From NCBI GenBank assembly GCA_965221165.1, contig CBDCRP010000003.1, forward strand, positions 1,120,001 through 1,184,000: a stretch of DNA of 64,000 nt, read 5' to 3'. Source of the DNA: a bacterium. Lineage in GTDB: Bacteria; UBA8248. The notes below the pieces were generated by a model. The model was not told where the DNA came from, did not search any database, and saw nothing but the letters and a program-made list of their open reading frames with translations. Shown here piece by piece: positions 4,496-46,718 of the stretch (its first letter is position 1; every line of letters starts with the position of its first letter). A program made the position numbers and the translations under genes.

Positions 4496-5499
4496 GATTC
4501 TAATTTACCAATCTTTCTTTCGAGTTCATTTATTTTTTCTGCTATCCTCGGCAAATTCCTCAAAACCGCAATTCGCCTGCGCGCATCACGAATTTCTGTC
4601 GCAGGAGCGTGGAGATACACCTTCCCTCCTTCTAAACTCTTCGGCACACCGGTTCCCGCTCCTAGTTTCGCACCATCTCCGATTTCAACATGATCAGCCA
4701 CCCCGACATTGCCGCCCATCATGACGCCTCGACCAATTTTCGCGCTACCCGAGATGCCTACCTGGCTCGCTAATATGCAATCCTCGCCAATAACGACATT
4801 GTGAGCGATTTGCACCAGGTTGTCGATTTTCGTGCCACGGCCGATTCTCGTTTCTCTTAGAGTGGCCCGATCGATTGTGCTGTTCGCCCCGATTTCCACA
4901 TCGTCCTCAATGACGACCGTGCCCGTTTGCGGGTATTTGAAAGTACGACCCTCCTCATCGGGAATATATCCAAATCCATCTGAACCGACGACAACTCCCG
5001 CATGAAGAATAACTCTGGACCATATCTCCACATCAGCATACAAAACACAATTAGGGTATATGTAACATTCAGAACCTATCCTCACGTTTTGGTCGATATG
5101 CACACCCGCCCCGATGTAGGAATCATCACCCACCACAACACCACTGGCAAGAGATGCAAATGGCCCTACATATACACCGTCTCCCACACGGGCCGTATCA
5201 GAGATGCTGGCGTTGGCGTCAATCCCGGGCTGGAATTTTTGAGGTGGGCGGAACAACAAGACCGCGCGGGCGAAAGATAAACGAGGGTTTTTCGTAGAAA
5301 TACATGGACGACCAGTTTCCAGTCCATGAGGAACGATAAGGGCACCCGCATCAGAGTGTGTACTAAGCTTTTTCGCTGACTCCACATAGCTCAAATCTTT
5401 TGGCGAGGCCTTTTCATATTCGGCTACATCCTGGACATCTACGTTTCCGTCGCCAATCAATTCCCCGCCAAGCAGATTCGCGATCTCTGCCAGAAACAT
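4492..5499 (-). CDS. lpxD: UDP-3-O-acylglucosamine N-acyltransferase
   Basis: [31 protein letters not shown] motifs. Confidence 0.96.
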
Positions 5500-5500
5500 T

Positions 5501-6070
5501 TCATTTCTTCTTCTGATCGTACAGCTTTATCACCTTTTCCGTCAGATCCACTCCCGGAGTATAAAACAAAACACCGCCAGAGGTACTGTCTACAATAACA
5601 TCCAAACCTTCTTGCTTTCCAAGTTCACTAACAATATCTTTCACCTCTTTTAGTACCTTTGTCACGGCCATCCTTCGGCGCTCTTCAAGATCTCGTTGGC
5701 TCTCCCGCAACAATCGCCTCAGATTATCCTGCTCGCGAGAGAGATCCCTCCTTTGGGATCGCAACTCGAACGCCTTGCGCTCTTTTTCCTCTTGGCGCCA
5801 AATCGCGCTTTTCTGGTCGATCTCCAATTGCAAATCACGCACTTTATTCGCAATTTGAGCCAAATCATTGCGCCTTTTCCGAATCGTGGTTTCGAGCCTC
5901 TTTTTCTCTCTGTCCAAAGACGAACTCGCGGCCCGTCCGCTTTTTGAAATTCGCAATACGCGCTGAATATTGACAACGCCATATTTCGCATTGGCCGATT
6001 CCACATCACCGGCATAAGCAAAGACAAAAAATATCGATACGAGCAAAATCGATAGTCCAAAACCCTTCAC
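5501..6070 (-). CDS. skp: OmpH/Skp periplasmic chaperone
   Basis: Signal peptide, GVVNIQRV, coiled coil, VDLTEKVI; lies between bamA and lpxD; GGAGG RBS before GTG. Confidence 0.88.
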
Positions 6071-6110
6071 CTAAACATCCTCCGTACCAAAGGCAATATC
6101 GGCAAACACC

Positions 6111-8426: not shown

Positions 8427-8478
8427 AAGACCACCCCCCGAGGAAGAAGGGGAAACCAGTTTCAATTTTTCAGTGAAA

Positions 8479-10923
8479 CTATAGGTCTTGGACACTGAGC
8501 ACTTCCGTGTCTTCTTTCAGTTCGAATACCAATTCATCCCCAGCCAACTTCGCCAGGATCGTTCCCCCATCCTGGAATTTACCATGCAAAACTTCTTCGC
8601 TGAGGGTATCTTCGATGTGTCTCTGGATGACGCGACGCAGAGGCCTTGCTCCATAAGCCGGCTCAAACCCCTGCTTGGCAAGCCAGTCTTTGGCCTCTTC
8701 GCTCAGTTCAATCGTCATTTCCTTCTCACCCAGCGTCACATTGACCTTGGCGATTTCAATATCCACGATTTTCAGGATGTCCTCATGGGTCAATGGCCGG
8801 AAGATGATGACATCATCAATCCGGTTCAGGAACTCGGGATTAAAGGTGCGCTTCAACTCATCGCGAATGCTGTCTTTAATCTTGTCGAAGCCAAGGCCTG
8901 AGTCCACCTTCTGGAAACCGAGGGATGTGCCTTTCTCAATGGATCGGGCCGCCAAATTCGAAGTCATGATGATGACGGTGTTCTTGAAGTCGATGTTGCG
9001 GCCATAGCTGTCCGTGAGCAGACCATCGTCCATCACCTGCAACAAGACATGGTAGACATCGGGGTGCGCCTTCTCGATCTCATCAAGCAGTATAACGGAG
9101 TAAGGCTTTCTGCGAACGCGCTCGGTGAGCTGCCCCCCCTCCTCGTAACCGACGTATCCCGGAGGCGCTCCGGTGAGGCGGGAGACGTTGAATCTCTCCA
9201 TGTATTCACTCATGTCAATGCGAATGAGAGCGCTCGGGTCGCCGAACATGAACTGGGCGAGCATTCGAGCCATCTCGGTCTTACCTACACCCGTAGGGCC
9301 TAGAAACAAGAAGCTACCGATTGGTCTCTTCGGCCCTTTCAGGCCTGCACGCGCCCGGCGAACCGCCTTCGTCAAAGCGCGCGTGGCTTCTTCTTGCCCG
9401 ATGATGCAGCTATTCAATTCCTCTTCCATTCGGAGAAGACGCTCGTTCTCCACTTCCCCGATGCGCTGCAACGGAATCCCGGTCATCCGGCTGACCACGT
9501 ACGCCACATCTTCATCGGTGACAAAAGGCTCTTCATCCGTTTGGCCCGCTTCCCATTCCGCTTTCAACTCGTCAAGCCTGCTTCTGTCCTGCTCCTCCTG
9601 GTCGCGTAACTCGACAGCCTTTTCAAAATCCTGTTTCTCGATCATATCTTTTTTGGTGCGAACCGTTTCTTCAATTTGGCGCTGAAGATCCCGAATGTTG
9701 CTCGGGAAGGTTTCTTTCTCAAGACGAACCTTGCTGCACGCCTCATCGATGACGTCTATGGCTTTATCCGGCAAGAAGCGATCCGATACATATTGGGACG
9801 ACAAGCGAACTGCGGAGACTAGCGCGTCATCCGTCAACTGCGCGCGGTGGTGTTTCTCATATTTGTCTCTCAGACCCTTCAGTATATTGACTGTGTCATC
9901 GACGGAAGGCGGATCCACCATGACACTTTGGAAACGACGCTCTAAAGCGCCGTTTTTCTCGATATATTTTCGATACTCATCCAACGTGGTGGCGCCGATA
10001 CACTGAACTTCTCCACGGCTGAGCGCGGGTTTTAACATGTTCGAAGCATCTATGGAGCCTTCCGCCGCGCCCGCACCCACCAAAGTATGCAGCTCATCAA
10101 TAAAGATAATCACATCCTGGCTTTGCGTGATTTCTTTCATGATGGCTTTCAAGCGCGCCTCGAACTGTCCACGGTATTTCGTCCCTGCAACCAAAGCGCC
10201 CAAATCAAGCTGAACCACGCGCTTGTTGTACAAAATCTGGGGAACTTCTTTCGACATAATCGATTGAGCCAAGCCCTCGACAATCGCTGTTTTCCCTACG
10301 CCGGGCTCTCCGATCAAGACAGGGTTGTTTTTCGTCCTTCGGGCGAGAATCTGGATGACACGCTCTATTTCATTCTCCCGACCGATGACGGGATCGAGTT
10401 TTCCCTCATCCGCAAACTCCGTGAGGTCGCGCCCAAACTCATCAAGCGCCGGCGTCTTGCTCTTCTCGCGAGAACGCGCCGCCACGGGTTCCCTTAAGAG
10501 ATTAATGGTCTGTTCCCGCGTTTGCTGGAGTTTTACGCCGAAGCTAGCCAGAATTTTAGCCGCCAATCCGTCTTTCTCTCTGACAATACCCAACAACAGA
10601 TGTTCGGTGCCGATATAGTTGTGACCCATCAAACGGGCCTCTTCGACGGCGTATTCAAGTACTTTTTTCGCCTTCGGGGTAAACGGGATATCCCCCTCCA
10701 CGGGGCCGCTCAAACTCTTGGGTAAATTACGCTCAAGCTCCAACCGAAGCTGCTTGGGGTCGACCCCTAACTTCTGCAAAACAGCTATGGCGATTCCGCC
10801 CCCATCCTTCAGTACACCAAGCAGGATATGTTCGGTCCCCAGATATTCGTGTCGGTAGTGTTCCGCTTCCTCTCTGGCCAAGATAATGACTTTGCGGGCA
10901 CGCTCGGTGAATCGCTTGAACAT
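8479..10923 (-). CDS. clpC: ATP-dependent Clp protease ATPase subunit ClpC
   Basis: Clp N repeats, two Walker A motifs ([16 protein letters not shown]), UVR-type middle domain, LGF ClpP-binding loop. Confidence 0.93.
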
Positions 10924-10933
10924 ACGGCCCTCC

Positions 10934-11668
10934 TTACTTTTTATGAGCTATTTTCCCGTCCACCACGGCGATCACACGATCCATTCTTTCCGCCATCGAA
11001 TTATTGTGCGTCGCCACCAAAATTGTTTGCTTGTTTCTTTGGTTTATCTCTCGAAGCAATTCAAATATCGTTTCCGCGGTTGAGGAGTCCAAATTCCCCG
11101 TTGGTTCATCCGCAAGTACTACAGAAGGATTGTTAATTAACGCGCGGGCAATAGCAACCCTTTGTTGCTCTCCTCCAGAAAGTTCTCCAGGCCGATGGTT
11201 CCATCTATCAGCCAAGTCCATCCGGCTTAACAACTCCTTCGCCTGCTGCTCCACCTCCTTTTTGGGGGCACCACGGATCAACCCGGGCATCATAACATTT
11301 TCTAGTCCAGAAAACTCCGGCAACAAGTGGTGAAACTGGAATACAAAACCCACATACTGATTTCTCAATCGCGCTAATTCTATTTCCGAGCAATCAGAGA
11401 GGCTTTTGCCTTCCAAAATCACTTCACCCTTCGTCGGCTTGTCGAGTGCTCCCAAAAGGTGAAGCAGGGTGGTTTTCCCTGCTCCTGAAACCCCCATGAT
11501 GGCCACCATTTCGCCATGACCAATTTCGAGGTTGACCCCGCTCAGAGCCACCACCTCGCCACTGCTCATAGAGTATGATTTCGCCAGTCCCCTAGTGACG
11601 ATAACCTGCGGTAACACACCTTTGGGTGAAGCAGATTCACTCATCTCCAATATGCTCGAATCAACCAT
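10934..11668 (-). CDS. lolD: Lipoprotein-releasing ABC transporter ATPase
   Basis: GVSGAGKT, GFVFQFHHLL, LSGGEQQR, ADEPTGNLD motifs. Confidence 0.92.
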   Translation of the reverse strand: MVDSSILEMSESASPKGVLPQVIVTRGLAKSYSMSSGEVVALSGVNLEIGHGEMVAIMGVSGAGKTTLLHLLGALDKPTKGEVILEGKSLSDCSEIELARLRNQYVGFVFQFHHLLPEFSGLENVMMPGLIRGAPKKEVEQQAKELLSRMDLADRWNHRPGELSGGEQQRVAIARALINNPSVVLADEPTGNLDSSTAETIFELLREINQRNKQTILVATHNNSMAERMDRVIAVVDGKIAHKK

Positions 11669-12926
11669 AACGGAGATTTTCTACCGGATCGACGCGCGAA
11701 GCACGCCACGCTGGGTAAAGTGTCGCCGCCAAACAGATTAACAAGGCGGACACTGCAGTAATAGAAACATCAAAAGACGTCATCTGCACCGGTAACTTCT
11801 CTATATGGTAAACGCTGGGCGGTAGGATGTCCAGGCCAAACACGCGTTCTAAAAAATCCTCCACTACATGGAGATTCCACCCCAGAACGAGACCTCCACT
11901 GGTTCCCAGCACAGCGCCCAAGAGCCCTATGAAAGCGCCTTGAACGAAAAAAATCCTCAAAATTGCGCCGCTCGTAGCTCCCATCGACTTCAAGATCGCG
12001 ATTTCGCGACCTTTTTCCATCACCACCATGACCAGGGAGCCTATGATGTTGAAGGCGGCGACAACAACGACCAGAAGGAGAAGTATGGTAAGCGTGGTTT
12101 TTTCCGTCTTTAACGCGGAAAACAGGTTACGATTCATTTCTTGCCAAGAACGAGACAAATATGCCGCCGGGAGGGTGCTCTGGATTTTGCGAGAAATAAG
12201 CTCAGCCGAGAAAATATCCTTCACCCGCAAATGCACCCCCGTTACAGAATCGCCGAATCCAAAGAAGGTCTGGCTCTCTTTCATGGAAATAAATGCGAGT
12301 CCTGCGTCGTATTGGTAAAATCCGCTGCGAAAGACCCCCACCACTTGAAATTTTTTTGTTCGGGGCACGAGGCCCATCGGCGTAATCACTCCCACAGGGC
12401 TCACCATCGTCACCGAATCACCCACCTTGAGGTACAAGTTCTTCGCGAGTTCGTTCCCGAGTATGACGCCGGGTTTATCGGCGCTGTTTTTTTTATCCAA
12501 AATCTTTTCTAATGCATCACCCTCGAGATACCTCTTAATATCTGTCACATCGATTTCCCGGGCAGGGTCGATTCCACGCACCACCGAACCCATCACGCGA
12601 TTCTTGGCTGAGAACATTGCCTGCCCATATACAAAAGGACTGGCCGCCACTACACCCGGCTGTTTACTAACCTTCTCCAAAGTATTCCGCCATTCTTTCA
12701 TCAATGAAGCACCTGATCTCGTCACAACAATATGGCTTTGTGTACCCAATATTTTTTCACGGAATTCCCGCTGAAACCCTGTCATCACTCCCACGACGAC
12801 GATGAGTGTAGCGACGCCCAGCGCGACGCCCAGCACAGATATCCAGGTAGTGAGTGAGACAAAAGCGAGTTTGCTCCGCGAGCGCAAGTGCCTGAGACCA
12901 ATGAACAGTTCCGTGGAAAAAGCCAT
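11661..12926 (-). CDS. lolC: Lipoprotein-releasing ABC transporter permease LolC/E
   Basis: LIVVVGVMTGF, VAAFNII, EKGREIAILKSMG, TLYPAWRA motifs. Confidence 0.9.
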   Translation of the reverse strand: MAFSTELFIGLRHLRSRSKLAFVSLTTWISVLGVALGVATLIVVVGVMTGFQREFREKILGTQSHIVVTRSGASLMKEWRNTLEKVSKQPGVVAASPFVYGQAMFSAKNRVMGSVVRGIDPAREIDVTDIKRYLEGDALEKILDKKNSADKPGVILGNELAKNLYLKVGDSVTMVSPVGVITPMGLVPRTKKFQVVGVFRSGFYQYDAGLAFISMKESQTFFGFGDSVTGVHLRVKDIFSAELISRKIQSTLPAAYLSRSWQEMNRNLFSALKTEKTTLTILLLLVVVVAAFNIIGSLVMVVMEKGREIAILKSMGATSGAILRIFFVQGAFIGLLGAVLGTSGGLVLGWNLHVVEDFLERVFGLDILPPSVYHIEKLPVQMTSFDVSITAVSALLICLAATLYPAWRASRVDPVENLRYG

Positions 12927-12928
12927 CT

Positions 12929-14461
12929 TCAGCCCTGATGTTTCCGCATAAGGGGAAAAAGGATTACATCCCGAATCGAGTGTGTATTCGTCAGTAGCAT
13001 CGCGAGCCTATCGATTCCGATTCCCTCACCTGCCGTAGGCGGCAAGCCATATTCCAGGGCCGTGAGATAATCCCAATCGATCTCATGGGCTTCCTCATCG
13101 CCGGCATCCCTCGCCGCTTCTTGTTGCTCAAAGCGGACGCGCTGATCGTCTGGATCATTCAATTCCGTATAGGCGTTGGCAATCTCGCGCCCGGCAATGA
13201 TGAGTTCAAACCGCTCCACAATATCGGGATCATCTTCCCTGCTCTTGGACAGCGGTGAAAGGGACTTGGGAAAATCATAGATGAAAGTTGGCTGCCTGAG
13301 TTTCGGCTCCACCAACTCTTCGAACAGATACTCCAGGACGTGCGCATGGCTCATTGCATCCGATATGGGGTAGCCCTTCGGCTCTGCGATTTCTTGCGCA
13401 AAAAGGCGGGCTTTTTCTTCAGCTTCTACTACTTCGCTCGGCGCGCCACCCACGGCCACGATGGAATCGTGCCATTTATATCGCGCCCAAGGCGCCTGAA
13501 ACGAGATTTCCTCGTCCCCATACTTCAGCACGTCACCTCCCAAAATATCCTGAGCCAAAGAGGCCACCATCTTCTCCGTCAATCTCATCAAATCGTTATA
13601 ATCCGCATAGGCCATATAGAACTCAAGCATCGTAAATTCCGGGTTGTGCTGCGTGGATATGCCTTCATTTCTGAAATTGCGGTTAATCTCATAGACACGA
13701 TCCATTCCACCCACAACCAGGCGCTTGAGATAAAGCTCGGGCGCCACGCGAAGGTACAAGGGCATTTCCAGGGTATTGTGGTAGGTGGTAAACGGTCTGG
13801 CCGCCGCTCCGCCGGCGATGGCCTGCATCATCGGGGTTTCGACTTCAAGAAAATTCAAATCATCCAAAAAGTGGCGTATTGACTGAATTATCCGGGTGCG
13901 CACCCGAAACACTTCGACCACCTCAGGGTTTGCGATCAAATCCACATACCGCTGTCGGTAACGCGCCTCCACGTTCTGTAGGCCGTGCCATTTTTCAGGT
14001 AGCGGCCTCAAACTTTTCGTCAATAGGTTTACCCGGCGCACCCAAATGGAAAGCTCGCCCATCCTCGTTCGGAACACGCCTCCTTCCACGCCGACGATAT
14101 CGCCAATATCAAGTTCCTTTGCGGACTGAAAAGCGTCTTCGCCTATTTCATTCATCCGAATGAACAACTGAATTTGTCCTGTTCCATCTCGCAGATCGAT
14201 AAAGGCGACTTTACCCTGCACCCGCTTGGCGATGATTCTCCCCGCCACGGAGAAATTCGTCTGTTTCGCCTCACCAAAACCATCCGTCGGCACTTCATCG
14301 AACTCTTGGACGACAGCGCCAATCTGATGGGTCGTCGAAAATCGATTCACAAACGGGTTGGCTCCGGACGCACGAATCCGATTGAGCTTTTTTCTCCGCT
14401 GTTGGGTCAAAACATTTTCATCATCTCGTTCATCTGGCAATGGTATCGTTTCATCCGCCAC
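12929..14461 (-). CDS. lysS: Lysyl-tRNA synthetase, class II
   Basis: [38 protein letters not shown] motifs. Confidence 0.98.
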
Positions 14462-14549
14462 CGGGGCACTCCTCCCATACCCTCTTTCAGCATCCCGTGG
14501 ATATTATTGTTTTCCTCATTCGTCTCAAGCTCAATTCAGCCCCCGGCGA

Positions 14550-15672
14550 TTACGCGCGCGTATTCGCCTTCTCTTCTATCAACGAGAGAAGGTAGGCGTC
14601 GATAAACTTATCGATATCCCCATCCAACACGGCATTCACATCCGAGAGTTCCACATCGGTTCGATGATCTTTCACCATCCGGTACGGATGCAATATGTAG
14701 GAACGAATCTGACTCCCAAACCCAATCGTCTTTTTCATGGCATGTTGGACTTCTTTTTCCTCATCGCGCTTTCGTTTCTCCATTTCATATAACTGACCGC
14801 GTAGCAATTTCATGGCCGTAGCGCGATTTTTATGCTGGCTTCTCTCATTTTGGCATGAGACCACGATATTCGTCGGCAAGTGTGTAATCCTCACCGCGGA
14901 ATCCGTGGTATTCACATGTTGGCCACCAGCACCCGAACTCCTGAACACATCAATTCTCAAATCGTTCTCATCGATCTCGATTTCCACATCATCCGATACC
15001 TCTGGAACGACATCCACGGAAGCAAACGAGGTGTGTCTCTTGGAACTGGCGTCAAAGGGCGAAATTCTTATCAACCGATGTACGCCGACTTCCGCTCGGA
15101 GGTAACCATAGGCGTAATCCCCCTGAATGATCAGGGTAACGTTTTTAATCCCAGCCTCCTCCCCTCCAAGTATGGAAACAAGACGCGCTTGGTATCCCCT
15201 CTCCTCCGCCCATCTCGTATACATGCGGAAGAGCATTTCGGCCCAATCCTGGCTCTCGACACCACCTGCTCCCGCATTCACGGAGAGAATGGCGTTGGCC
15301 CTGTCTTCCTCGGAATCCATGACCAGGTGAAACTCCAGGCGCTCGGTTTCTTCTAAAAGAGAGGAAAGAGCATTTTCGATATCACTCAGGAGTTCTGATT
15401 CGGACGTTTCTTCCATTTGGAGAAGCTGGAGAAGTTCTTTCTGTTCTTTGAGTCCCCCGTTCAGGTTCTCCCAATTCCGGATCGTTTTCTCAAGAGACGC
15501 GCGCTGCCTCAGTGTGTTTTGCGCGGTTTCAGCGTCGTTCCAAAAACCCGTCTCTCCGGCGAGTTTATCCAGCTTGGCGCATTCCGCCTCCAAACGATCG
15601 AGGTCAAAGCCGCCCTCGCAGTTCAAGGAGGCGTGCCTCCAGTTGCTCAGATTTTTTACACAAATCTTCCAT
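14550..15672 (-). CDS. prfB: Peptide chain release factor 2 (programmed +1 frameshift at CTT-TGA-C, 15609-15603)
   Basis: ATG 15672 (GGAG RBS) reads MEDLCKKSEQLEARLLELRGRL to CTT TGA; the +1 frame continues DLDRLEAE. SPF and GGQ motifs present. Confidence 0.96.
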
Positions 15673-15737
15673 GGATATCTCCAATCTTTCGAAACACAAC
15701 TCTATGGCCTGTCGGCATGGAGTCCACCTGGGCAGTT

Positions 15738-17285
15738 CTAATTATCATACCACATTCGAGAGTCCCGTCTGGAGCGAAACAGCAAAACCCCCGCCACAGA
15801 AACGAAAACACACAGATACGCGAACATATCCCCCATCCTGGCATAAGCGCTAGGGGCGTCTTTTTTCAACAAAATGGCATCAGAGTGTATCCACTCCTCA
15901 AAAAGGGGGCTTCGCTTTCGAATCGCTCCGGTAGGATCGACCAACGCGCTGATCCCCGTATTCGCTGAACGAACAATCGGCATTCGGAATTCCACCGCCC
16001 GGAACGCCACCATCGACAGGTGCTGTTCAGAGGCCGCAGTTTTCCCGAACCACGCATCATTCGTGATGTTGATGAGAAACTGCGCACCTTTCATCCGTCG
16101 CACCACACGGGGGAAAATGGCTTCAAAACAAATCAAGACGCCGAACTTCGCGCTGGCGGCATCAAATATCTTCGGCTCGTCTCCTGGCTTGAACGTCCCA
16201 ATCACCGGCACCAGTTTTTGCACAAAAAACAATAGTTTACCGAGTGGAACATATTCGCCGAAGGGCAGTAAATGCATCTTGTCATATCGGCCAATTTCCT
16301 CGCCGCGCGGGTTGAGGAGATATGCCGAGTTCGTTAATCCCGGCCCTTGTCTTACGTCACGCTCCCCGAGGGCGCCAAACAGCAGATAGGAATTCGTATC
16401 CCTTGCGAGTTGACGAAGATGCCTTCTCTCGTGCGCTCGTCGTTGGTAAACAAGAGGAGCCGCCGCCTCCGGCCAAACAACAATGGGAGGAGTGGCCAAT
16501 CCGTTTTTCGGGAAACGACCACTCAAGTCCCCCGTTAATTTTCCCATCTTCTCGAGAATGCTCTTTTGCCACCGGGGAGACCATTTGACGGCCTGATCGA
16601 CATTCCCCTGTACGATACCCACCGGACGCGCTGCGCCTTCCGTTTGGATAGGTACTTCGTGGAGACGCAGATAACCATAGCCCCACACAACCGCCGTCAT
16701 GAGCGAAACGCTAATGACAACAGCGTAGGTCGCTTTCTGCGGAAAGCGAAAAAAATGCCAAATCGCCGCGTTGACGAACACGATGACAAATGACACGCCA
16801 TACACACCTGCCAGATCGGCGATTTGAATAACATGCAAATAGCGATATTGACTATAGCCCAGTAGCGCCCACGGGAAACCCGACAAAGCATAGGCACGCA
16901 ACAATTCCAAGGAGACCCAAAGGGGCGCCGCGACTAGAAAGGTGAAAATGGAGCCACCCGCCTGCATACGCACCATAAAAAACGCAAATAGCGCCGGGTA
17001 CAACGCGAGATAAACCGCGAGGACGACGGTAATCAGCCACGCAAGGACCGCAGGCAGACCACCATAGGTGGTCATGGAAATCTTTACCCACCAGATGATG
17101 ATTCCGAACGAAATCAGCCCGGCCAGCAACCCCAGCACAAACGCTTCATGCGCTTTTTTTCCCTCCAGAGCCCACAAGAGGGGAACGAGCGCAACCCAGG
17201 CTAAAATTTCAAATTGAAACGGCGGAAACAAAGACGCCAGCAAAAGACCCGAGAATATGGAATATCCCACATCTTTCGCTTTCAA
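15738..17285 (-). CDS. lnt: Apolipoprotein N-acyltransferase
   Basis: TM helices, GFPW, VQGN, WPEAA, YDKMHLLPFGEY, ICFE, TNDAWFG, RSANTGIS motifs. Confidence 0.95.
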   Translation of the reverse strand: MKAKDVGYSIFSGLLLASLFPPFQFEILAWVALVPLLWALEGKKAHEAFVLGLLAGLISFGIIIWWVKISMTTYGGLPAVLAWLITVVLAVYLALYPALFAFFMVRMQAGGSIFTFLVAAPLWVSLELLRAYALSGFPWALLGYSQYRYLHVIQIADLAGVYGVSFVIVFVNAAIWHFFRFPQKATYAVVISVSLMTAVVWGYGYLRLHEVPIQTEGAARPVGIVQGNVDQAVKWSPRWQKSILEKMGKLTGDLSGRFPKNGLATPPIVVWPEAAAPLVYQRRAHERRHLRQLARDTNSYLLFGALGERDVRQGPGLTNSAYLLNPRGEEIGRYDKMHLLPFGEYVPLGKLLFFVQKLVPVIGTFKPGDEPKIFDAASAKFGVLICFEAIFPRVVRRMKGAQFLINITNDAWFGKTAASEQHLSMVAFRAVEFRMPIVRSANTGISALVDPTGAIRKRSPLFEEWIHSDAILLKKDAPSAYARMGDMFAYLCVFVSVAGVLLFRSRRDSRMWYDN

Positions 17286-39258: not shown

Positions 39259-40338
39259 ATGGGGCATCGCTTCATGTATCAAAATCTCATCGATGACGAG
39301 ACGGCCATCACCGCCACTTCGGTGGAAACGGGTTTCGTCGGCGCGGGCGTGCCACGCGTCGCCAACGCGGGCGGCTCGATGATATTCTCGGGCGCCTACG
39401 CCGGAGACGACAGGGAAGTCTACTCCGTGGAAATCGACGCCCCGGGTGATGTGGGAAGCGCTCGTTTCAAGTGGCGCAAGACCTCGACTTCGGCGGGTGG
39501 CTGGGAAGCCTCGAACATCCCCACCGCACTGAAAGACGTCGCCCTCGATGCAGGTGTGAAGGTCCGCTTCGCGGATGGAGCGAATTCACCCGCTTTCGCT
39601 TTGGGAGATCGTTGGCAGGCCACGGCGAATCGCTTTCACTCGCCAAGAAGAACCTACGATCTGGACCCCGGCACGAGGATGAGGAGCGCCTCCCCTCCCG
39701 AAGACCCCTGGTCGCTTGCCCTTGATTTCGGCGAGGAGAAATCTCCCGACGTATTCATCGCCCACCTCCACAACTTCACGCCAGAAACAAGTCTCAAGAT
39801 TCAGGCGAACTCAACTGCCGACTGGCGCGCGCCCGCGCTCGAGGAAGCGCTCGCCTGGAGAAGCCCCACGCTCGTCCATTATCTCACCACCACGCCCCGC
39901 CCGTATCGCTACTGGCGGCTTCTGGCGGAAGGCGGCGGCGCCAACCCGGATGCTTATCTGGAAATCTCGGAAATATATTTAGGCGGCTTTTTTGAGCCTG
40001 CCGATCATTTCTGGTTCGGAAACGTGGTGGGAGAAGAATCCTTCGAGGAAACAGGCCGCGCGGAGAACAGGGCGGACCGTCTGGTGCTCCTGAACCGCGC
40101 TCGCACGGCCACCCTCCCCTATCAGCGCATCTCCGGTGAGCAGCGCGGCGAATTCCTCGCCATGTACCGGGCGGTGAAGGACATTCAGGCAGGGCGGGCC
40201 AAACCGCTATTCGTTCATCTGGACGTGGATGACCCCGCCTCGCTCATTCTCGCCAACCTCATGGGCGATTTTTTGCCGCGCCAGACGGGGCCGGATGATT
40301 TCTCCTTCGAGCTTCAGCTCAAGGAGAGACTCTCATGA
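39259..40338 (+). CDS. Putative distal tail (Dit-like) protein with discoidin/F5-8-like domain
   Basis: ATG 39259 after AGGAG. LALDFG, HNF, YRYWRL, YLEISEIYLG discoidin-like motifs; C-terminal FELQLKE typical of Dit-like proteins. Confidence 0.6.
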   Translation: MGHRFMYQNLIDDETAITATSVETGFVGAGVPRVANAGGSMIFSGAYAGDDREVYSVEIDAPGDVGSARFKWRKTSTSAGGWEASNIPTALKDVALDAGVKVRFADGANSPAFALGDRWQATANRFHSPRRTYDLDPGTRMRSASPPEDPWSLALDFGEEKSPDVFIAHLHNFTPETSLKIQANSTADWRAPALEEALAWRSPTLVHYLTTTPRPYRYWRLLAEGGGANPDAYLEISEIYLGGFFEPADHFWFGNVVGEESFEETGRAENRADRLVLLNRARTATLPYQRISGEQRGEFLAMYRAVKDIQAGRAKPLFVHLDVDDPASLILANLMGDFLPRQTGPDDFSFELQLKERLS

Positions 40339-40868
40339 GACGGGCCACGGACCATGCCATCGCGGATATCGCCGAACATGCGGGCAAAAACGCTTTCGTC
40401 ATCTATCACCTCTCCACCGCCGGCGGAAAGCGCGTGTTTTGCGGAAAGCAGGTACCCGATTCGCTGATCGGGCAAGGCGGAAAAATCTACTTCCTCGATG
40501 GCGCCCGGATTCTCGACGGCTCACTCCTGCTGGGAGAAGGAGCCGAAGTGCTCCTCGGCGCTCATGATTGGATAGAGGATGGCGGACGCTTCTCCCTCGG
40601 CGCGTTTCAGGGCCCCTCCGCTCTCGAAGCATTCAGGCAAAAAGAACTCTCCGGCCTTACGATATTCATCAACAACAACTCCGATATGGACGGCCACCCG
40701 CGTATGAGCCGCATCCTCGCGACGGAACCGCTCGTGGGCGGGAGGGTGGACGTCCGCGTCGGGTTTTCGGGGCAAACCATAGCCGATGTTCTTTCGATCG
40801 CGAGTTTCACGGTTCGCCGAATCATCGAGCGCATCGACCTGGTCACGATTGAATGCGAGGGAAACTAG
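40335..40868 (+). CDS. Putative tail hub N-terminal-like protein
   Basis: ATGA overlap with the previous gene; VDVRVGF...VTIECE pattern; in frame with the next gene. Confidence 0.5.
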   Translation: MRRATDHAIADIAEHAGKNAFVIYHLSTAGGKRVFCGKQVPDSLIGQGGKIYFLDGARILDGSLLLGEGAEVLLGAHDWIEDGGRFSLGAFQGPSALEAFRQKELSGLTIFINNNSDMDGHPRMSRILATEPLVGGRVDVRVGFSGQTIADVLSIASFTVRRIIERIDLVTIECEGN

Positions 40869-42080
40869 ATGGCCGACCTGACGACGGACCGGCTCTCGGA
40901 TTCATTTCAGATAGGGCGCGCCTCGAGATACGCCGCTCCTGAGTTCGAAGACCAGAGCCTCCCCATCATCTACGGGAATTTAACCATCCCCTCGCGTGAG
41001 AATTCGGGTGTCTACGCGCTCCCGAAAATCGACACCACAGGCGACGGCCTCTACTGCGTGGCCGGGCATGAAATATCAGGCGGCGTCACGTTGTTTGATG
41101 ACGATGGCCGCATCGAGCCGGATGACTATGCGCTGGAACTCGCCCGCAACTATCTGGGCAAGGGGGTCATCGCCACCGCCGTCTTTTCCGCCCCGCCCAA
41201 GGGGAGAGTAACCGCCGTATGCAAGGGCAAGATGGACGCTGCGGGCGCGCTCATCGAAAACCCCGCCGCAATCATTTATGACCTGATGACGAGCGTCTGG
41301 GGTTTCAGCGAACAGGACATCGACATGCAGGCCCTCTCACGCGCGGCGGCCTGCGCGAACGCTCTCGCCTACCGGGCGGGCGGAATACTCATGGACGATC
41401 ATGCGCCCGCCGACGTTCTCACCGCGCTTTTGGGCGATTTTCTCGCGCGATACGAAATCGACCCGTTCGGTCGCCTGGGAGTTCGCATCGCCGGGGAGGA
41501 ATCTTCCGGGGTTCTTCCGAAAAAGGTTCTGCCCCGCTTCGGCCAATGGCGCATCGAGGCGGAGATGGCGCGCGACACGGTCATCAACCAGGTTCCGGCG
41601 CTCTACGCGAGGGACTACGTAAGCGCGCGGCACATGAAGCACGATGATGGCGAGACTACAAAAAACACGTCCTCCCAAAGGCTCTATGGCGTCAGGATGC
41701 CTCCGCAAAGCCCGCTCAGGCTCGAATGGGTCCGGCGCGAGAGCGTGGCCGCCACGATTCAATCGCGCATCGTGGAACGCTATCACCAACCCACCCGCAT
41801 GCTCACCATCGAGGACAACACCCTGAGAGCACTCGAGGTCGAACCGGACGACTACGTCGCGTTCAGCGTGCCCTGGATGCGCTCGGAAAACCTCGAACCC
41901 CTCGTGAATCAAATCGGGGAAGTGATTGAGGTGAACTACGACCTGAGTGAACAAAACATGGAGTTCAAAATCCGGGATACCGGCTTTTTCCTGACATCCT
42001 CCCCTCTTCTGGATGGGACCAGAACACTCGAAGGCGGCCGGCTCCTGGGTGCCGAGCGCGACGCCGCCACCTACGCGTAA
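40869..42080 (+). CDS. Putative tail hub / tip attachment (Tal/gpJ-like) protein
   Basis: LPIIYG, ENPAAIIYDL, SQRLYG, LEWVR, LEVEPDDYV patterns recalled from siphovirus hub proteins. Confidence 0.65.
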   Translation: MADLTTDRLSDSFQIGRASRYAAPEFEDQSLPIIYGNLTIPSRENSGVYALPKIDTTGDGLYCVAGHEISGGVTLFDDDGRIEPDDYALELARNYLGKGVIATAVFSAPPKGRVTAVCKGKMDAAGALIENPAAIIYDLMTSVWGFSEQDIDMQALSRAAACANALAYRAGGILMDDHAPADVLTALLGDFLARYEIDPFGRLGVRIAGEESSGVLPKKVLPRFGQWRIEAEMARDTVINQVPALYARDYVSARHMKHDDGETTKNTSSQRLYGVRMPPQSPLRLEWVRRESVAATIQSRIVERYHQPTRMLTIEDNTLRALEVEPDDYVAFSVPWMRSENLEPLVNQIGEVIEVNYDLSEQNMEFKIRDTGFFLTSSPLLDGTRTLEGGRLLGAERDAATYA

Positions 42081-42091
42081 AGGAGAAAAAA

Positions 42092-43033
42092 ATGCCCATC
42101 GGCGCTGATCTGTCCGCCCGCTACACCGAGGAAGCCCTCGGCGGCAACCATCCGACGAAAGCCCGCGTCATCGACCGCCTGGCCCTCGCCGCCCTGTTTC
42201 AGGACGGAAAAATCAGGGCCAACAGACAGCCCATCGAATGCGCGGGCAGGCTCGACTACGTGAACGCCACCACCCTGGCCCTCAAACCGACGCTCAACTC
42301 CGCCTATTATCCCGCCGTCGCTAATCCCGTGGCGGGCCGCCATGTACCCTTCATCGACGGGGCGTCGGGCGACGTCTATTACGAGGATTTGCCTTGGGAG
42401 GGGGTTAGCATAACGAACGCGGACCTCGTGGCGAACGAATCCTATGCGGTATTCGTCTACGATGATGGGGGCGCGCTCAAACTCGAATTCGAGGCCACGG
42501 GTAACTGGGCGTTCGACCCCGCCACGGGTCTTGCGCACAAAACGGACGATGTGAGCCGCACCCTCGTCGGCATCGCGAGAACGGACGCTACATCCCAATT
42601 CGTTCTCGCGAACGACGTGTACGTCAGGAGTTTTTGGAACAAGGCGGAATACGCCGCCCAATCCAAAGGCGCGCTCGCCACTACCACTTCCACGAACTGG
42701 GCCTCTATCACCACGCACGAGATATTGATGTGGCCGGGCCACGATGTCGTGCGCCAGGAAGCAGGCGGACAGGGCTGGGTGAATTCAACGAGCAGACCAG
42801 GGCTACTGGGCCTGGACATGGATCTCGCCCTGTTCAACGGGTCGGGGCAAGCCTATCCGCAGGTCGAAATCATCGGTTCATCCAGCAACGAAAAAGACAA
42901 TTTCGGGATGGTGAAAACACAAATATACACCGAGGCGCTCGGCGAGGTTCACTCTACGTTCGTCTTTCGCGTGCCCCAAGCGACCATCCTGAGCGTTGGC
43001 GATTATCTCTTCCAAAGCGTCGTTTTGATTTAG
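42092..43033 (+). CDS. Putative tail fibre / receptor-binding protein
   Basis: AAGGAG RBS. Beta-rich GRLDYVNATTL...ANESYAVFVYDDGG...KTDDVSRTLVG block resembles phage fibre domains; position after the hub. Confidence 0.5.
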   Translation: MPIGADLSARYTEEALGGNHPTKARVIDRLALAALFQDGKIRANRQPIECAGRLDYVNATTLALKPTLNSAYYPAVANPVAGRHVPFIDGASGDVYYEDLPWEGVSITNADLVANESYAVFVYDDGGALKLEFEATGNWAFDPATGLAHKTDDVSRTLVGIARTDATSQFVLANDVYVRSFWNKAEYAAQSKGALATTTSTNWASITTHEILMWPGHDVVRQEAGGQGWVNSTSRPGLLGLDMDLALFNGSGQAYPQVEIIGSSSNEKDNFGMVKTQIYTEALGEVHSTFVFRVPQATILSVGDYLFQSVVLI

Positions 43034-43042
43034 GAGACCGAA

Positions 43043-43744
43043 ATGGAAATGGAAGTGACGAAAGCGATCGGCCCGCATTTTCGCGGTGAACTCGAAGCGG
43101 CCGGGCTTGCGCACCTATACCTGGGGGCAGCGCACCGACTGGAGGCGAACATGATCCCCGACGCCGCCTGGCGGCCCAAGCCCGGCGAGGCGGAATCGGC
43201 CCGTCCCGAAATCCAAGGACCCGGGCTGGATTTGTGGATCATCAACGTGGCCGATTCGACCACCGAAGCGCAGCGAGACGCCATTCTCGCCGCTCATGAT
43301 GCGCATGCGCCCGATGGCGTCGCGCAAATCCACCGGGACCAGGCGAAAGAGAAACTCCATTTGTTGCTCAACGGCGCCAAGGCGCGCATTGTGGGTGTTC
43401 CGGTAAGCGCTCTGGGCGGCAAGCTGGCCGAGTATGAGGAAAAAGCCAAGCTCATCGACGCCTGGGCGCAGGATTCCGACCCGGACTCGGACAAGCTCAC
43501 CAAACCGGGGTTCCTGCTCGTCAAAAACCGAAAAGACGCCTACCCGACACGCGACGCGACGGGCCAAAGCGTGGTGGATGAGTGGACGACCCTGAGGGCG
43601 GCTCTCCTCGGCAAGCTCGCCTCTCTCGTGAAAATCTACGACGAGAGCGTGCGTGACACCCAGGATGCGAGCATCACCACGAGCGTAGCGACCCTCGATG
43701 CGAAGCTCGCAGAAGCCGCCTCCTCTTTCGACGCCGTGCGCTGA
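43043..43744 (+). CDS. Putative tail fibre assembly / DUF4376-like phage protein
   Basis: AGGAG RBS. IGPHFRGELEAAGL, AILAAHD and RKDAYPT motifs; follows the fibre gene. Confidence 0.45.
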   Translation: MEMEVTKAIGPHFRGELEAAGLAHLYLGAAHRLEANMIPDAAWRPKPGEAESARPEIQGPGLDLWIINVADSTTEAQRDAILAAHDAHAPDGVAQIHRDQAKEKLHLLLNGAKARIVGVPVSALGGKLAEYEEKAKLIDAWAQDSDPDSDKLTKPGFLLVKNRKDAYPTRDATGQSVVDEWTTLRAALLGKLASLVKIYDESVRDTQDASITTSVATLDAKLAEAASSFDAVR

Positions 43745-44127
43745 TGGCCTCCGAAGCAAACGGGAAAGGGCTCCAGATTTTCCTGTCCATCCTGAGCATC
43801 GCCGGCCTCGGGGTCGCCGCCTACACCCCGCTCTACAACCAAATCGTAAACGTGGAAACGCGTTTGGCGGCCCACATGGGAGAGCGTGGCCACCCCTGGC
43901 TTCTGGAGAAAAACGCGGGCGCGCGCGTTCGCTTCCAGGAGGTGGAGACCCAGTTCCGTGAGGCGAAGACGATCGCCGATCTCAAATTCCGTGAACTCAA
44001 GGGAATTTCCGCCAAAAAAACGCGCGAGGACACGCAAACCTTTGCGCAAATACTGCGCCGTCTGCGCGAAGTCGAAATCGCGCTCGCCAAACTCGACGAG
44101 CGCTTGAACAAGGAGCGTCAACCATGA
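43744..44127 (+). CDS. Membrane-anchored coiled-coil phage protein (holin-like position)
   Basis: TGATG overlap; one TM (LQIFLSILSIAGLGVAAY) followed by a coiled coil. Confidence 0.5.
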   Translation: MASEANGKGLQIFLSILSIAGLGVAAYTPLYNQIVNVETRLAAHMGERGHPWLLEKNAGARVRFQEVETQFREAKTIADLKFRELKGISAKKTREDTQTFAQILRRLREVEIALAKLDERLNKERQP

Positions 44128-44246
44128 TTCCCCATCTTCTCGCAGCGCTTTTCTCGGTCGCCGCCGTCGTGTGCGCCATTGCGGCCATCGAGCCGCGTCT
44201 CATCACGAACCATCTGTGGCACTTCATCAACCCCTGGGCGGATTAG
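44124..44246 (+). CDS. 40-aa single-TM small protein (missed by ORF track)
   Basis: AAGGAG RBS and ATGA overlap; MIPHLLAALFSVAAVVCAIAAIEPRLITNHLWHFINPWAD. Confidence 0.55.
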   Translation: MIPHLLAALFSVAAVVCAIAAIEPRLITNHLWHFINPWAD

Positions 44247-44405
44247 AACGATCGGGCATGTCGCGCCTCTCCAAAACCGAGTTGGCGTGGGAAAACTCCT
44301 CGCCTTCGAGCCGTTCTTGAACCTGCATGACCCGGAAGAATCGAGTTCCAAAGGAAGCGATGAGGCGCGTCGCATTCAGCATCTTATTCAGGAATGGGAG
44401 ATTCC

Positions 44406-46085
44406 ATGCCGGAGCACACCTATAAAATCTCGGTGACAAAGAGAATAGACTTGCACTCTGGAAACAGCCTCAAAACACTTGCCCGGTTCACCAAAACGGC
44501 GGGCCAGGCGCGAACCGCCACGGAACAACTGAATGCCGAAACCCGCGAGTCCCGCGATGCGCTTAAAAAATCGAGCCGCGCCTTCATAGAATCCTCGAAA
44601 AAACTCGAAAAGGTCGGCGACTCGTTCATGGACGCAGCCGACGGGATAAGCACCCTGGGAAAGAGCGCGGAACAGGCCGGTTCCCAACTCGACTCCGGTC
44701 CGCTCGCCAAAGGCCTGAGCGACATTCAAAAGAAAGCCACGGCACTGCCCGCCTCTTTCGAGATCGCCGGAAGGGTGATGGATGACTTCGCAAGAGCGAG
44801 CGAGGAATCGCTTGCCCGGTTTTTCTCACGCGCCCTCTCCGGCAAAATCGCGGATGCCAAGGATCTGTTCAGCGACCTGAAAAACCACGCTATCAACATG
44901 GTGCGGGATGCCGCCGTCGAGATGGCCAGCACGCAATTCATCCAACCGGCGGTGGGCGCTCTCAAGAAGCTGGGCGTCGATTTGCTGGGTGACGTGGGTG
45001 AGGGTCTGTTCAAGGTGCTCGGCTTCGCCAAAGGCGGTCTGGTGAAAAAACCGACTCTGGGCCTGATCGGCGAGGCCGGGCCGGAACTCGTGGTGCCGCT
45101 GGCGAAAATCGGCGGCGAGGCGGGACTTTTGCGGCTTTTCAAATCCGTCTCCGAGATCGAGGCGGCGAATCGCCTGGGGGGCACGGAGGTCGCCACCACG
45201 CTGGGCGCAAAGGCGAGCGGCGAACTGGCCGCGCGGATCGCAGCCGCAAAGGCGGCGGCGTCCCTGCAAATCGTTTTTTCAGCGCTCGATTTCCTGAGGG
45301 GCCCGAAAACCCTGAAGAGAGGGGCGAATCTGGGCATTAACGTCGCCGGCGCCATCCCGGCGCTATCGGGCGCCACGGGCCTCGCCGCCTTCGGGCCGGC
45401 GGCAGGCGCTTTTTTGCTCACGGACGTGTTGTTCAACAAAGGAGGCGCCATCAAACAGGCGCTTTCTTTCCTGGGCATCAAGGGCCTCATCAGCGATTCC
45501 ACGCCCTTCACCAGGGGAATAGGGAATCTCGCACAGGCGGCCGAACTCTATCTGGCGCTCAGGAACTTCCGCACAACCGGCGTGGCGGATGAACCGATAA
45601 ACCTGTCGATTCCAAAAGCGGTCTACGAGGGCCGGATGAGCGTGGACGGTATTTTACTGAGGACTGCCGGATCTACGTTTCAGCGCATTCAACGAGCAGC
45701 GGGAAGAACCGGCATCTCGCCCCAGGAAGGGGTGCGCCGGTATTTCGGCAAGGAGCTTCACGCCGCCTACCTGAATGCGCTTCCCGTCTTCGAGGGCGAC
45801 GCGGCGGGGCGTTTCGTCAAGCGCTCTGCTCTCAGGCTCGTGGGCGAAGCGGGACCCGAGCACATCATGAACGTGAACCACCCCCAATCGATCGATTTCT
45901 TTCAGCGCGGCGTGCAGCCCATCATCCGCGACGCGATACGAGAAGAACTGGGAGAGCGCGGAGGCGACACGCATATCTACCATATACATATCGAGGGAAA
46001 CCTGAGCGACAACCGCACGCTCGAGAAACTCTCGCGCAAACTGGAGGACATCAACAAGCGCCGCCGCCGCTACGGAGGGGCTTGA
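44406..46085 (+). CDS. Tail tape-measure-like protein (559 aa)
   Basis: Ala-rich helical N-half, hydrophobic Gly/Ala centre, FAKGGLV...IGEAGPELVVPL TMP C-terminal motif. ATG 44406 after GGGAG. Confidence 0.75.
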   Translation: MPEHTYKISVTKRIDLHSGNSLKTLARFTKTAGQARTATEQLNAETRESRDALKKSSRAFIESSKKLEKVGDSFMDAADGISTLGKSAEQAGSQLDSGPLAKGLSDIQKKATALPASFEIAGRVMDDFARASEESLARFFSRALSGKIADAKDLFSDLKNHAINMVRDAAVEMASTQFIQPAVGALKKLGVDLLGDVGEGLFKVLGFAKGGLVKKPTLGLIGEAGPELVVPLAKIGGEAGLLRLFKSVSEIEAANRLGGTEVATTLGAKASGELAARIAAAKAAASLQIVFSALDFLRGPKTLKRGANLGINVAGAIPALSGATGLAAFGPAAGAFLLTDVLFNKGGAIKQALSFLGIKGLISDSTPFTRGIGNLAQAAELYLALRNFRTTGVADEPINLSIPKAVYEGRMSVDGILLRTAGSTFQRIQRAAGRTGISPQEGVRRYFGKELHAAYLNALPVFEGDAAGRFVKRSALRLVGEAGPEHIMNVNHPQSIDFFQRGVQPIIRDAIREELGERGGDTHIYHIHIEGNLSDNRTLEKLSRKLEDINKRRRRYGGA

Positions 46086-46593
46086 TAACAAAGGAGGCCG
46101 GATGTTTCATGCTTCTATACCTCCTTGGGAATACGGTGTCTTCCTGGCGTGCTTCACCGGGAGATCCCTGAAAGTTTCATGCTTTCGCCTGTTTTGGTGA
46201 AGGCCATTTTTTCCGGGTGGATTCAGACCGGCCGCCGCCCGAAGAGTCTCCTGAGACGCACGAGCGATGAGGAGCGATTCTCTCGCCGATAACCTGAAAC
46301 GGATACGAAGCGGCTCATTTCACGCGGCACGCGAGACGTGAAAGAACCTGAAAGATGAGTTCTCGAAAAGATGGGGAAAAGACGATATGCAGAGGGTTCA
46401 TTCAGAAGCAAGGAACAATAGGTCGTGTGGAGAGGGATGGCTTAAAACATCGCCGACTTCACTCGCGCCATTTCGCGCCGGGGAAAGGCGCATGAAGCCT
46501 GCAATGCACTCAAACGATGGGGTGATGAGGCGTGATATCCACGTAAACCAACCATCAAATATACCCACGAAAAAAAAATATTTTCGCGCGTGC

Positions 46594-46718
46594 ATTTCCC
46601 GGTTTTTCCCGGTATTTACCGGCATTTCATCGCATTTGCCAGTCTTGTTTTTCCGGTATTTTCCGCTTTTTTTTCGCTATTTTTCACCTTTTTCCACTAT
46701 TTTTTACTTTTTCTCGCA
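46594..46718. repeat. Degenerate ~10-bp tandem repeat with phased T-tracts
   Basis: ATTTCCCGGT, TTTTCCCGGT, ATTTACCGGC, ATTTCATCGC, ATTTGCCAGT ... ATTTTCCGCT, ATTTTTCACC, TTTTTCCACT, ATTTTTTACT; about 12 units. Confidence 0.75.

Follow-up and report, generated by a model that had tools for sequence, protein, structure and literature searches.

Introduction

Experimentally supported gene transfer agents (GTAs) come from very few lineages. Passages of PMC9662315 describe these viriforms by their caudoviricete structural homologues, endogenisation often over multiple loci, mostly vertical inheritance with co-diversification, and a particle that is too small for the whole gene set and that packages and delivers mostly random host DNA; three independently exapted GTA groups are treated there. 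Here we analyse a phage tail-tip operon at positions 39259-46085 of a 64,000-nucleotide stretch of bacterial DNA (contig CBDCRP010000003.1; "the window" means this whole stretch), together with two further sets of phage-derived genes, for head, packaging and tail tube, on another contig of the same genome. The operon is called locus C, and the other two sets loci A and B. On balance, we regard it as rather probable that the three loci make up one selected, particle-forming, GTA-like system of independent origin that is vertically inherited and spread over three sites. That this three-locus system achieves true gene transfer is a more tentative suggestion, possible rather than probable.

As judged by comparing sequences, the system is a strong GTA candidate in Nitrospinota, a phylum without a described GTA. 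A full-text literature search for gene transfer agents and Nitrospinota (one wording, supplements being outside its scope) returned no paper that has such an element as its subject according to title or abstract. In one paper that names both, the GTA-like sequences are alphaproteobacterial and Nitrospinota is only a member of the community.

Throughout, G000 denotes the window's own genome and C2 its second contig, which carries loci A and B. Comparisons within the genus used 22 other genomes and those within the family 41 other genomes. The viral comparison was a scan of IMG/VR with an alignment of the third operon gene, O3, which gave 27 confirmed loci; the open reading frames (ORFs) of seven contigs were mapped in full, and one contig was annotated.

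A tail-tip operon between host genes

Locus C consists of seven conserved, co-oriented plus-strand genes, O1-O6 and O8. The features are as follows (lengths of products in amino acids, aa).

39259..40338, plus strand: O1, 359 aa, protein in the position of a distal-tail protein (Dit), with a CBM32/discoidin-like beta-sandwich domain
40335..40868, plus strand: O2, 177 aa, predicted small tail-tip protein, an N-terminal fusion to the hub in some phages
40869..42080, plus strand: O3, 403 aa, predicted baseplate hub/Tal, gp27-like, gpJ/pb3-type N-terminal part
42092..43033, plus strand: O4, 313 aa, fibre/receptor-binding protein candidate
43043..43744, plus strand: O5, 233 aa, genus-restricted protein
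43744..44127, plus strand: O6, 127 aa, one N-terminal transmembrane helix at residues ~8-30 (hydropathy)
44128..44405, no strand: variable O6-O8 spacer, 266-278 non-coding bases, depending on the O8 start
44394..46085, plus strand: O8, 563 aa (559 aa from the MPEH start, 44406), predicted tape measure orthologue, last gene of the operon
46181..46204, plus strand: terminator-like hairpin 3' of O8, from a consensus scan alone, with a site count not above that of shuffles

The open frame of O1 extends back to 39193, and orthologues fix its start at 39259; for O8, they suggest the MPEH methionine at 44406. An earlier note on this DNA, made from the letters alone, had described a co-oriented operon with ATGA/TGATG overlaps, strong ribosome-binding sites and no frameshifts. 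The ORF listing and the junctions bear this out: O1 and O2 overlap in ATGA, O5 and O6 in TGATG, GGAG-type ribosome-binding sites lie upstream of O1, O4 and O5, and neither the window operon nor 10 orthologous loci of the same genus contain an internal stop or frameshift. The host-like base composition that the note reported also holds, with a GC content of 0.59-0.63 in the module against 0.57-0.61 in its flanks. These are host genes on both sides: plsX, yceD, ppx, a hexapeptide transferase and an M23 peptidase upstream, and cinA, a GATase, an HAD hydrolase and a flavin reductase downstream. By itself the module is as headless as had been claimed. Pfam, PHROGs and the annotation of the flanks place no capsid, portal, terminase, tube, integrase or repressor in or adjoining it, and no convincing direct repeat was found around it, in keeping with the earlier failure to see an att repeat.

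Standard family searches say little about the products. Pfam gave nothing at E<=1 beyond noise for all eight window ORFs (O1-O8), and PHROGs gave weak matches only, the best being to tape-measure families at O8 residues 144-256 (E 5.4e-7). The viral contigs are more informative. Hidden Markov models (HMMs) of O1, O2, O3 and the first ~40 residues of O4 match consecutive ORFs in 27/27 confirmed IMG/VR loci, and the O2 model matches either the ORF between O1 and O3 or the N-terminal part of O2+O3 fusions of 561-577 aa. In all seven fully mapped contigs, the O1-O4 block directly follows a tape-measure-sized ORF of 652-1289 aa, and in the annotated contig the genes for a head-tail adaptor, Neck1, tail terminator and major tail protein lie upstream of that ORF. 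Because the homologues stand consecutively after a tape-measure-sized ORF in viral contigs, O1-O4 is, on this comparative evidence, the distal-tail block of a siphovirus group.

The hub/Tal-like assignment that the earlier note gave to O3 is upheld by structure prediction. Its AlphaFold2 model has a mean predicted local distance difference test (pLDDT) score of 66, which is moderate, with residues 1-210 well predicted. Foldseek against the PDB matches this gp27-like fold to hub chains of DT57C, JBD30, Chi, T5 pb3, lambda gpJ and the GTA of Rhodobacter capsulatus (6tba_8A), at E 1.3e-7 to 1.2e-3, and the protein-atlas clusters closest to O3 carry Phage-tail_3/TipJ. We thus take O3 to be a baseplate hub by its modelled fold. 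Some of its homologues bear LamG domains, and a tblastn search with O3 found nothing among 50,697 phage records. For O1, the Dit-like label is not confirmed. What speaks for it is the place behind the tape measure in viral contigs, together with viral folds: the model (pLDDT 87) matches many viral "tail protein" models in BFVD, with E down to 9e-13. Its PDB matches, on the other hand, are dominated by CBM32/discoidin-type domains, with no solved Dit among the matches listed, and a profile search against PDB sequences had 0 hits.

O4 resembles the ORF after the hub in viral contigs and in other genera over its first ~40 residues and differs in the remainder; this pattern of conserved anchor and variable head makes it a fibre/receptor-binding candidate, as had been proposed. 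The proposal of a fibre chaperone for O5 is not sustained. It has no Pfam or PHROG family, and its 30 homologues (64-100% identity) all belong to this lineage, being confined to the genus. Instead of two small membrane proteins, only one is left, O6, which has a weak PHROG match of unknown function (phrog_34951). The other, an 85-aa ORF at 44179-44436 (O7), was rejected as a gene: its GC content at third codon positions (GC3) is 0.55 compared with 0.70-0.75 in the other genes, and it is unconserved in relatives.

The tape-measure reading of O8 fares well. Its homologues are almost confined to this lineage, and it contains the GEAGPE motif twice. The O8 model matches a 561-aa ORF of G055 collinearly (E 2.4e-33) and a 485-aa ORF of G048 (E 5.7e-6), genomes of two other genera in which this ORF lies between the tube gene and O1/O2-O3, and it also matches a 1267-aa viral ORF in tape-measure position. 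Because the matched ORFs of G055 and G048 stand at the tape-measure position, O8 is, by sequence and position, the orthologue of a tape measure protein. BLASTP found no significant similarity between O8 and the tape measure of G027, a genome of another family, and a profile search against the PDB gave coiled-coil noise only.

Several features of the operon's surroundings vary between genomes. The O6-O8 spacer holds an extra gene of 184-217 aa with a lipoprotein-like signal in G001, G006, G007 and G022 (L009:14513-15082, L010:13552-14106, L012:13164-13817 and L013:13126-13779), and G006 has a second, partly duplicated copy of it. The spacer may be a scar of a rearrangement of locus C. In G007, two tandem paralogous genes of 309 aa lie between O8 and cinA (L012:16104-18122). 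In the window, a T-rich segment at 46594-46677, between the O8 terminator-like hairpin and the end of cinA and within a probably spurious 128-aa ORF, contains three imperfect direct repeats of 30 nt (TTTTCCCGGTATTT-like), with 10 nt between two of them. GC content across the window rises from 0.47-0.51 in the first 16 kb (1-16000) to 0.58-0.62 in the last 28 kb (36000-64000).

Head, packaging and tube genes at two other loci

The window's genome gives no match to three Pfam head models (PF05065, PF04860 and PF03354) or to the terminase models phrog_2 and PF03237. Its head genes were missed by these standard models because they belong to other families. They came to light through gene neighbourhoods. 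In G027, the O1-O3 homologues end a contiguous cluster of large terminase (TerL), portal, MuF-like protein, protease-capsid, three connector-sized ORFs, tube and a 752-aa tape measure. Tblastn of the ORFs of G027 and of the viral contigs against the window's genome gave matches on C2, where loci A and B were found (E values follow the family names).

G000:C2:876612-879726, minus strand: locus A, split TerL followed by the portal gene, ~8 kb from locus B
Within locus A: portal, 458 aa (phrog_10963 1.3e-45)
G000:C2:862166-868159, minus strand: locus B, protease-capsid, connectors, tube and a protein in chaperone position
Within locus B: protease-major-capsid fusion, 710 aa (phrog_29592 7e-135, phrog_4523 5e-52, PF25209 8e-46)
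Within locus B: connector-sized protein, 236 aa
Within locus B: HK97-gp10/Neck1-like connector, 169 aa (phrog_5 7e-17)
Within locus B: connector-sized protein, about 150 aa
Within locus B: tail tube, 379 aa (PF18906 4.5e-11, phrog_290 2e-20)
Within locus B: protein in the chaperone position, likely a chaperone, 130 aa

Locus B lies between a diadenylate-cyclase gene and cofC/cofD, and host genes on the opposite strand separate it from locus A. Annotation of the flanks revealed no integrase, replication, repressor or lysis gene adjoining loci A, B or C. The distance from locus C to loci A/B in complete genomes is 0.26 Mb in G022, 1.7 Mb in G007 and 2.0 Mb in G001. At 0.26-2 Mb apart, the loci of this genus could not all be carried in one headful, and the system would hence behave like a GTA (viriform) and not like a virus.

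A number of ORFs near these loci were considered as further members and rejected. Two beside cofC, x294 and x90, are both kept in G008 and G009, two genomes of the genus without the module, and x294 does not behave as a gene at all (see below). Two others upstream of TerL, u181 and u93, were candidates for the small terminase; they contain stops in several relatives, and u181 is kept in G009. Between loci A and B, the region G000:C2:873783-875765 holds a tandem pair of host paralogues (333 and 334 aa, 57% identity) that every relative keeps, the module-free G008 and G009 among them. Upstream of the terminase, at G000:C2:879819-880259 (L070:5819-6259, minus strand), the window's genome is without ~1.8 kb relative to its congeners, and the gap leaves an ORF in which a 70-residue N-terminus is fused to the C-terminal half of a DUF520 protein.

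A conserved split of the large terminase

The terminase of locus A is encoded by two ORFs (G000:C2:877988-879726, minus strand) in which the TGA of the first overlaps the ATG of the second (ATGA). The first matches the ATPase part of phrog_675 (positions 25-339, E 1e-50) and PF05876 GpA_ATPase above cut-off (E 2.2e-17); the second, of 215 aa, matches positions 357-549 of phrog_675 (E 2.4e-10). On these family matches, the large terminase is of lambda-GpA type, split into an ATPase and a nuclease ORF. Both ORFs are open in 11/11 genomes of the genus, and the ratio of nonsynonymous to synonymous substitution rates (dN/dS) is 0.23 for the ATPase and 0.21 for the nuclease; here and below, dN/dS is the median of pairwise Nei-Gojobori values across 11 genomes, a simple estimate. 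The one stop seen, in G020, is close to the upstream limit of the query's open frame and may precede the true start. The split extends to other genera. In G043 and G055, from two of them, the frames of the TerL parts likewise differ; G041 has both parts in one frame, but there the open frame of the N part closes before the C part is reached.

Two longer ORFs could be mistaken for other forms of the enzyme. One is a 376-aa ORF upstream of the portal that looks like a truncated TerL, pseudogenised in relatives; over its first ~160 codons it reads the ATPase ORF in the wrong frame. The 581-aa "intact" terminase ORF of G014 is the same artefact.

Conservation, selection and joint loss

Across the genus, the three loci are kept as a set. 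O3 is single-copy, without stops and 69-93% identical in 20/22 other genomes, where the module is intact, and the capsid fusion, a full-length portal and the TerL C part each occur in the same 20. The order of O1-O6 and O8, downstream of the hexapeptide-transferase gene, is identical in all 11 same-genus loci fetched. The M23 gene lies between this transferase and the module in 8/11, and cinA follows O8 in 7/11; within the stretch fetched, G002, G010, G012 and G020 have no cinA 3' of O8, with only a 48%-identical CinA-domain match in G010. Loci A and B sit between the same host genes in 10/10 relatives examined.

The genes are under purifying selection. In locus C, dN/dS is 0.23 for O1, 0.17 for O2, 0.24 for O3, 0.25 for O4, 0.32 for O5, 0.15 for O6 and 0.24 for O8. 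This range (0.15-0.32) is not near 1 and falls within that of the neighbouring host genes: plsX 0.09, hexapeptide transferase 0.07, cinA 0.14, ppx 0.19, yceD 0.20 and M23 0.28. Median dS is 0.46-0.66 in the module and 0.51-0.78 in host genes. The genes of loci A and B have values of 0.15-0.45 and no stops in 11 genomes, with the TerL halves, portal and capsid at 0.15-0.23. The non-gene control x294 gives a dN/dS of 1.3 and 11 stops.

Inheritance is vertical, and the loci have co-diversified with their hosts. The sites are fixed, dS is like that of the flanks, and the cofC/cofD flank is shared by other genera. In trees of 10 genomes, loci A and B agree fully with eight host proteins (Robinson-Foulds distance 0 of 14), and locus C differs from its flanking host genes in one split (2 of 14).

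The two exceptions in the genus, G008 and G009, are without all three loci, and the host flanks are adjacent. At the locus C site M23 adjoins cinA, and at the locus B site the cyclase gene adjoins x294/x90 and cofC. At the locus A site of G009, the upstream host genes are followed by the host gene h398, with 26 residues of the portal C-terminus left between; this remnant indicates loss and not primary absence. In G008, the terminase, the portal and h398 are missing from that site, and the remaining flanking host genes are in place. A host tree (FastTree, 4 host proteins, 1087 columns) groups G008 with G001 and G006 (supports 0.93 and 0.99) and puts G009 beyond those branches. Since the two are non-sister, all three loci were lost jointly twice.

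The earlier note had suggested a dispersed, host-encoded particle rather than a decaying prophage. Of the findings that it had named as refuting this (absence or decay of the module in close relatives, a dN/dS near 1, no partner structural genes, no structural match to tail proteins), none turned up. This idea is supported by the partner genes now located in loci A and B (split TerL, portal, protease-capsid, connectors and tube), by the shared phyletic pattern and joint losses, and by fixed sites and trees that match the host. The tailocin that it offered alongside is not favoured, with capsid, portal and terminase kept under purifying selection.

Distribution in the family and origin of the dispersed state

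Homologues carry the source names Nitrospinae, Nitrospinota and Nitrospinaceae, and 57%-identical proteins come from Candidatus Tectomicrobia. Among the other genomes of the family, O3 occurs in 31/41 and the capsid fusion in 33/41. Both are present in 30, fragments of only one in 4, and neither in 7, namely G008, G009, G047 and all four genomes of a small-genome genus, g22. In G045, a deletion joins the capsid gene to the O3 end.

Three other genera, represented by G048, G055 and G041, have the cluster in contiguous, ~20-kb versions. The flank at its end in G048 and G055 is cofC-cofD, as at locus B. The order in G055 is TerL-C, portal, cyclase gene, partial host gene, capsid fusion, connectors, tube, a 302-aa ORF, the 561-aa O8 homologue, O2, O3 with a LamG extension, fibre-anchor ORFs and x90-cofC-cofD. 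Judged by gene order, the whole cluster ancestrally lay beside cofC/cofD. Within the window's genus, its tail-tip genes and tape measure moved to the M23/cinA site; the tape measure became the last gene there, and O5 and O6 joined.

More distant genomes differ in other ways. G026, from another family of the order, has a compact ~15.4-kb cluster between host DUF169 and DUF481/CorA genes (L023:18619 to L015:14044). It runs from a small ORF through TerL (487 aa), a portal-like gene (457 aa) and ORFs of 198, 415, 91, 265 and 196 aa to a 904-aa O1-like gene with a ~530-aa insert, followed by O2-, O3- and O4-like genes, ORFs of 138 and 75 aa, an SLT lysozyme and, last, a 122-aa ORF. Neither an integrase nor a long tape measure was seen in this cluster, whose head genes are without homologues in the window's genome. 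In G027, an in-frame TAG interrupts the O3 homologue (L017:9515-10737), and in G023 the homologue lies in three pieces (G023:C132:4101-5259). The terminase of the G027 cluster is of a different, phrog_2 type, which points to mosaic head modules.

A proposed particle and the alternatives

The phage-derived set comprises the caudoviricete structural genes for TerL (split), portal, protease-capsid, connectors, tube, tape measure, hub and fibre, with no small terminase found, at three loci between host genes on two contigs. In the mechanism that we propose, the loci would be expressed in a fraction of cells, capsids would assemble on the portal, and the terminase would fill them with DNA. Tails would be built on an O1/O2/O3 tip around the O8 tape measure as the tube of locus B polymerises. 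Once released, the particles could bind recipient cells through O4 and transfer the packaged host DNA. In its fullest form the proposal is that of a bona fide GTA, domesticated independently in the common ancestor of a Nitrospinota family, its core split into three loci in one genus and still working, with a TerL permanently split into ATPase and nuclease subunits that may underlie sequence-independent packaging of host DNA. This fuller version we put forward with some reserve, as a possibility and not as the expected outcome.

Several points weigh against the idea of a working particle. The particle and its DNA cargo are predicted from genes. No small terminase, endolysin/holin or regulator was identified, and the MuF-like head protein of the G027 cluster has no counterpart in the window's genome. 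The split TerL could mean impaired packaging, though purifying selection acts on both halves. O1 is assigned as Dit by position only, and O5 and O6 are lineage-specific additions without an assigned role. The system is also dispensable, having been lost in 2/22 genomes of the genus; it is absent in 4/4 of g22 and fragmentary in the genera g2 and g18. As to the data, all compared genomes are metagenome assemblies, the window's genome has an estimated contamination of 8.5%, and dN/dS was estimated from related genomes that are not independent. One genome, G005, has frameshifts in O1 and O4, but equally in cinA and the GATase gene; these are read as assembly errors, and the genome was excluded from the selection analysis. 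Among sequencing runs, two from a single sample contain most of the stretch, and no RNA run is listed with it.

Other explanations take the same genes differently. The particle made from the three loci could serve something other than gene transfer (for example killing, adhesion or the delivery of protein cargo), with DNA packaging incidental or lost. A terminase in two ORFs with no small terminase found would suit such a particle, as would the lineage-specific O5 and O6, and the carbohydrate-binding-type domain of O1 and LamG in some O3 homologues fit surface recognition. If packaging were irrelevant, however, TerL halves, portal and capsid at a dN/dS of 0.15-0.23 without stops in 11 genomes would be unexpected, and known tailocins have shed their head genes; we consider this explanation unlikely. 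Somewhat less likely still is a tail-tip operon that acts alone, in a surface or defence complex for instance, with the loci for head and tube as separately kept relics that serve other roles. Locus C did move apart in the genus and gain O5 and O6, and it has its own upstream intergenic region and terminator-like hairpin. Against this, the three loci stand together in 20 genomes of the genus and were lost together in two non-sister species, and we know of no function for a tape measure and hub without a tube.

Decay and mobility explain even less. Old prophage remnants, functionless and not yet decayed, would account for the lack of regulatory, lysis and small-terminase genes and for the fragmentary clusters of g2, g18 and G027. 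Yet 15 genes are open in all 11 genomes at a dS of about 0.45-0.65, with dN/dS like that of housekeeping neighbours, and neutral behaviour is visible where it is expected, in the non-coding control x294 (1.3, with 11 stops) and in the 85-aa ORF O7 with its low GC3. Artefacts of assembly or of the selection estimate aside, this explanation is already contradicted, and we think it very improbable. Least credible of all is that the genes belong to a temperate phage or phage satellite that can still move. Viral contigs hold the closest relatives of O1-O3, and contiguous prophage-like versions exist in G027 and G032. A functional temperate prophage, though, is one contiguous element with integrase/att, regulation, replication and lysis functions, and the loci form no such element: in complete genomes the genes occupy sites that lie 0.26-2 Mb apart, neither an integrase nor att repeats turned up, and O3 is without a tblastn match among the phage records searched. 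Synteny contradicts mobility directly, with identical host flanks across species and trees that match the host. A selected, vertically inherited, particle-forming system dispersed over three loci is the reading that we prefer.

Significance

If particles are made, a phylum of mostly uncultured marine bacteria would join the organisms with a built-in gene-exchange device. The family also offers a natural experiment. Some genera have the gene set in one piece, one has it fragmented, and in others it is decaying or has been lost; the two independent losses of all three loci define a functional unit without genetics; and the large terminase is split in a conserved way. There is a point of method as well. 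The "headless" tail module was resolved through the neighbours of its homologues in viral and distant genomes, after three standard Pfam head models had come up empty.

Comparison with known systems

With the distal tails of lambda/T5-type siphophages the system shares the fold of the O3 hub, and its viral relatives and other genera keep the order tape measure, O1, O2, O3, fibre. In the window's genus, by contrast, the tape-measure gene comes after the fibre genes, and the module stands apart from the genes for tube and head and has gained O5 and O6. F-type tailocins (e.g. F-pyocins) are siphovirus tails of the non-contractile kind that hosts have domesticated; their chromosomal modules include tape measure, hub and fibres. 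A domesticated siphovirus tail module with these three components lies in the host chromosome here too. Tailocins are tail-only, without capsid, portal and terminase, whereas here these genes are retained elsewhere in the genome, under selection and co-inherited with the tail locus.

BaGTA of Bartonella and BhGTA/VSH-1 of Brachyspira are, like the present system, independent domestications of tailed phages that co-diversify with their hosts, and passages of PMC9662315 describe the BhGTA genes as probably dispersed. They differ in host lineage and gene families, and both have experimental particles (BaGTA also transfer), where the present system is known from genes.

The closest parallel is the GTA of Rhodobacter capsulatus (RcGTA; Rhodogtaviriformidae), which according to the same passages of PMC9662315 occupies five loci. 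Both are siphovirus-derived head-tail sets without replication or integration genes, endogenised, multi-locus and vertically inherited, and the RcGTA hub is among the fold matches of O3 (6tba_8A). At the level of sequence families, the two part company. We take the RcGTA families to be the HK97-type PF05065 capsid, the PF04860 portal and tail DUF families. Sequence homology to the RcGTA head-tail genes was not found: O1-O8 have no Pfam family, and the genome has neither a PF05065 capsid nor a PF04860 portal. In their place are a Phage_capsid_4-type protease-capsid fusion (PF25209) and a split GpA-type terminase, in a different phylum. This lack of sequence kinship to RcGTA points to an independent domestication. 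RcGTA keeps one ~15-kb core, whereas here the structural core itself is broken into three loci.

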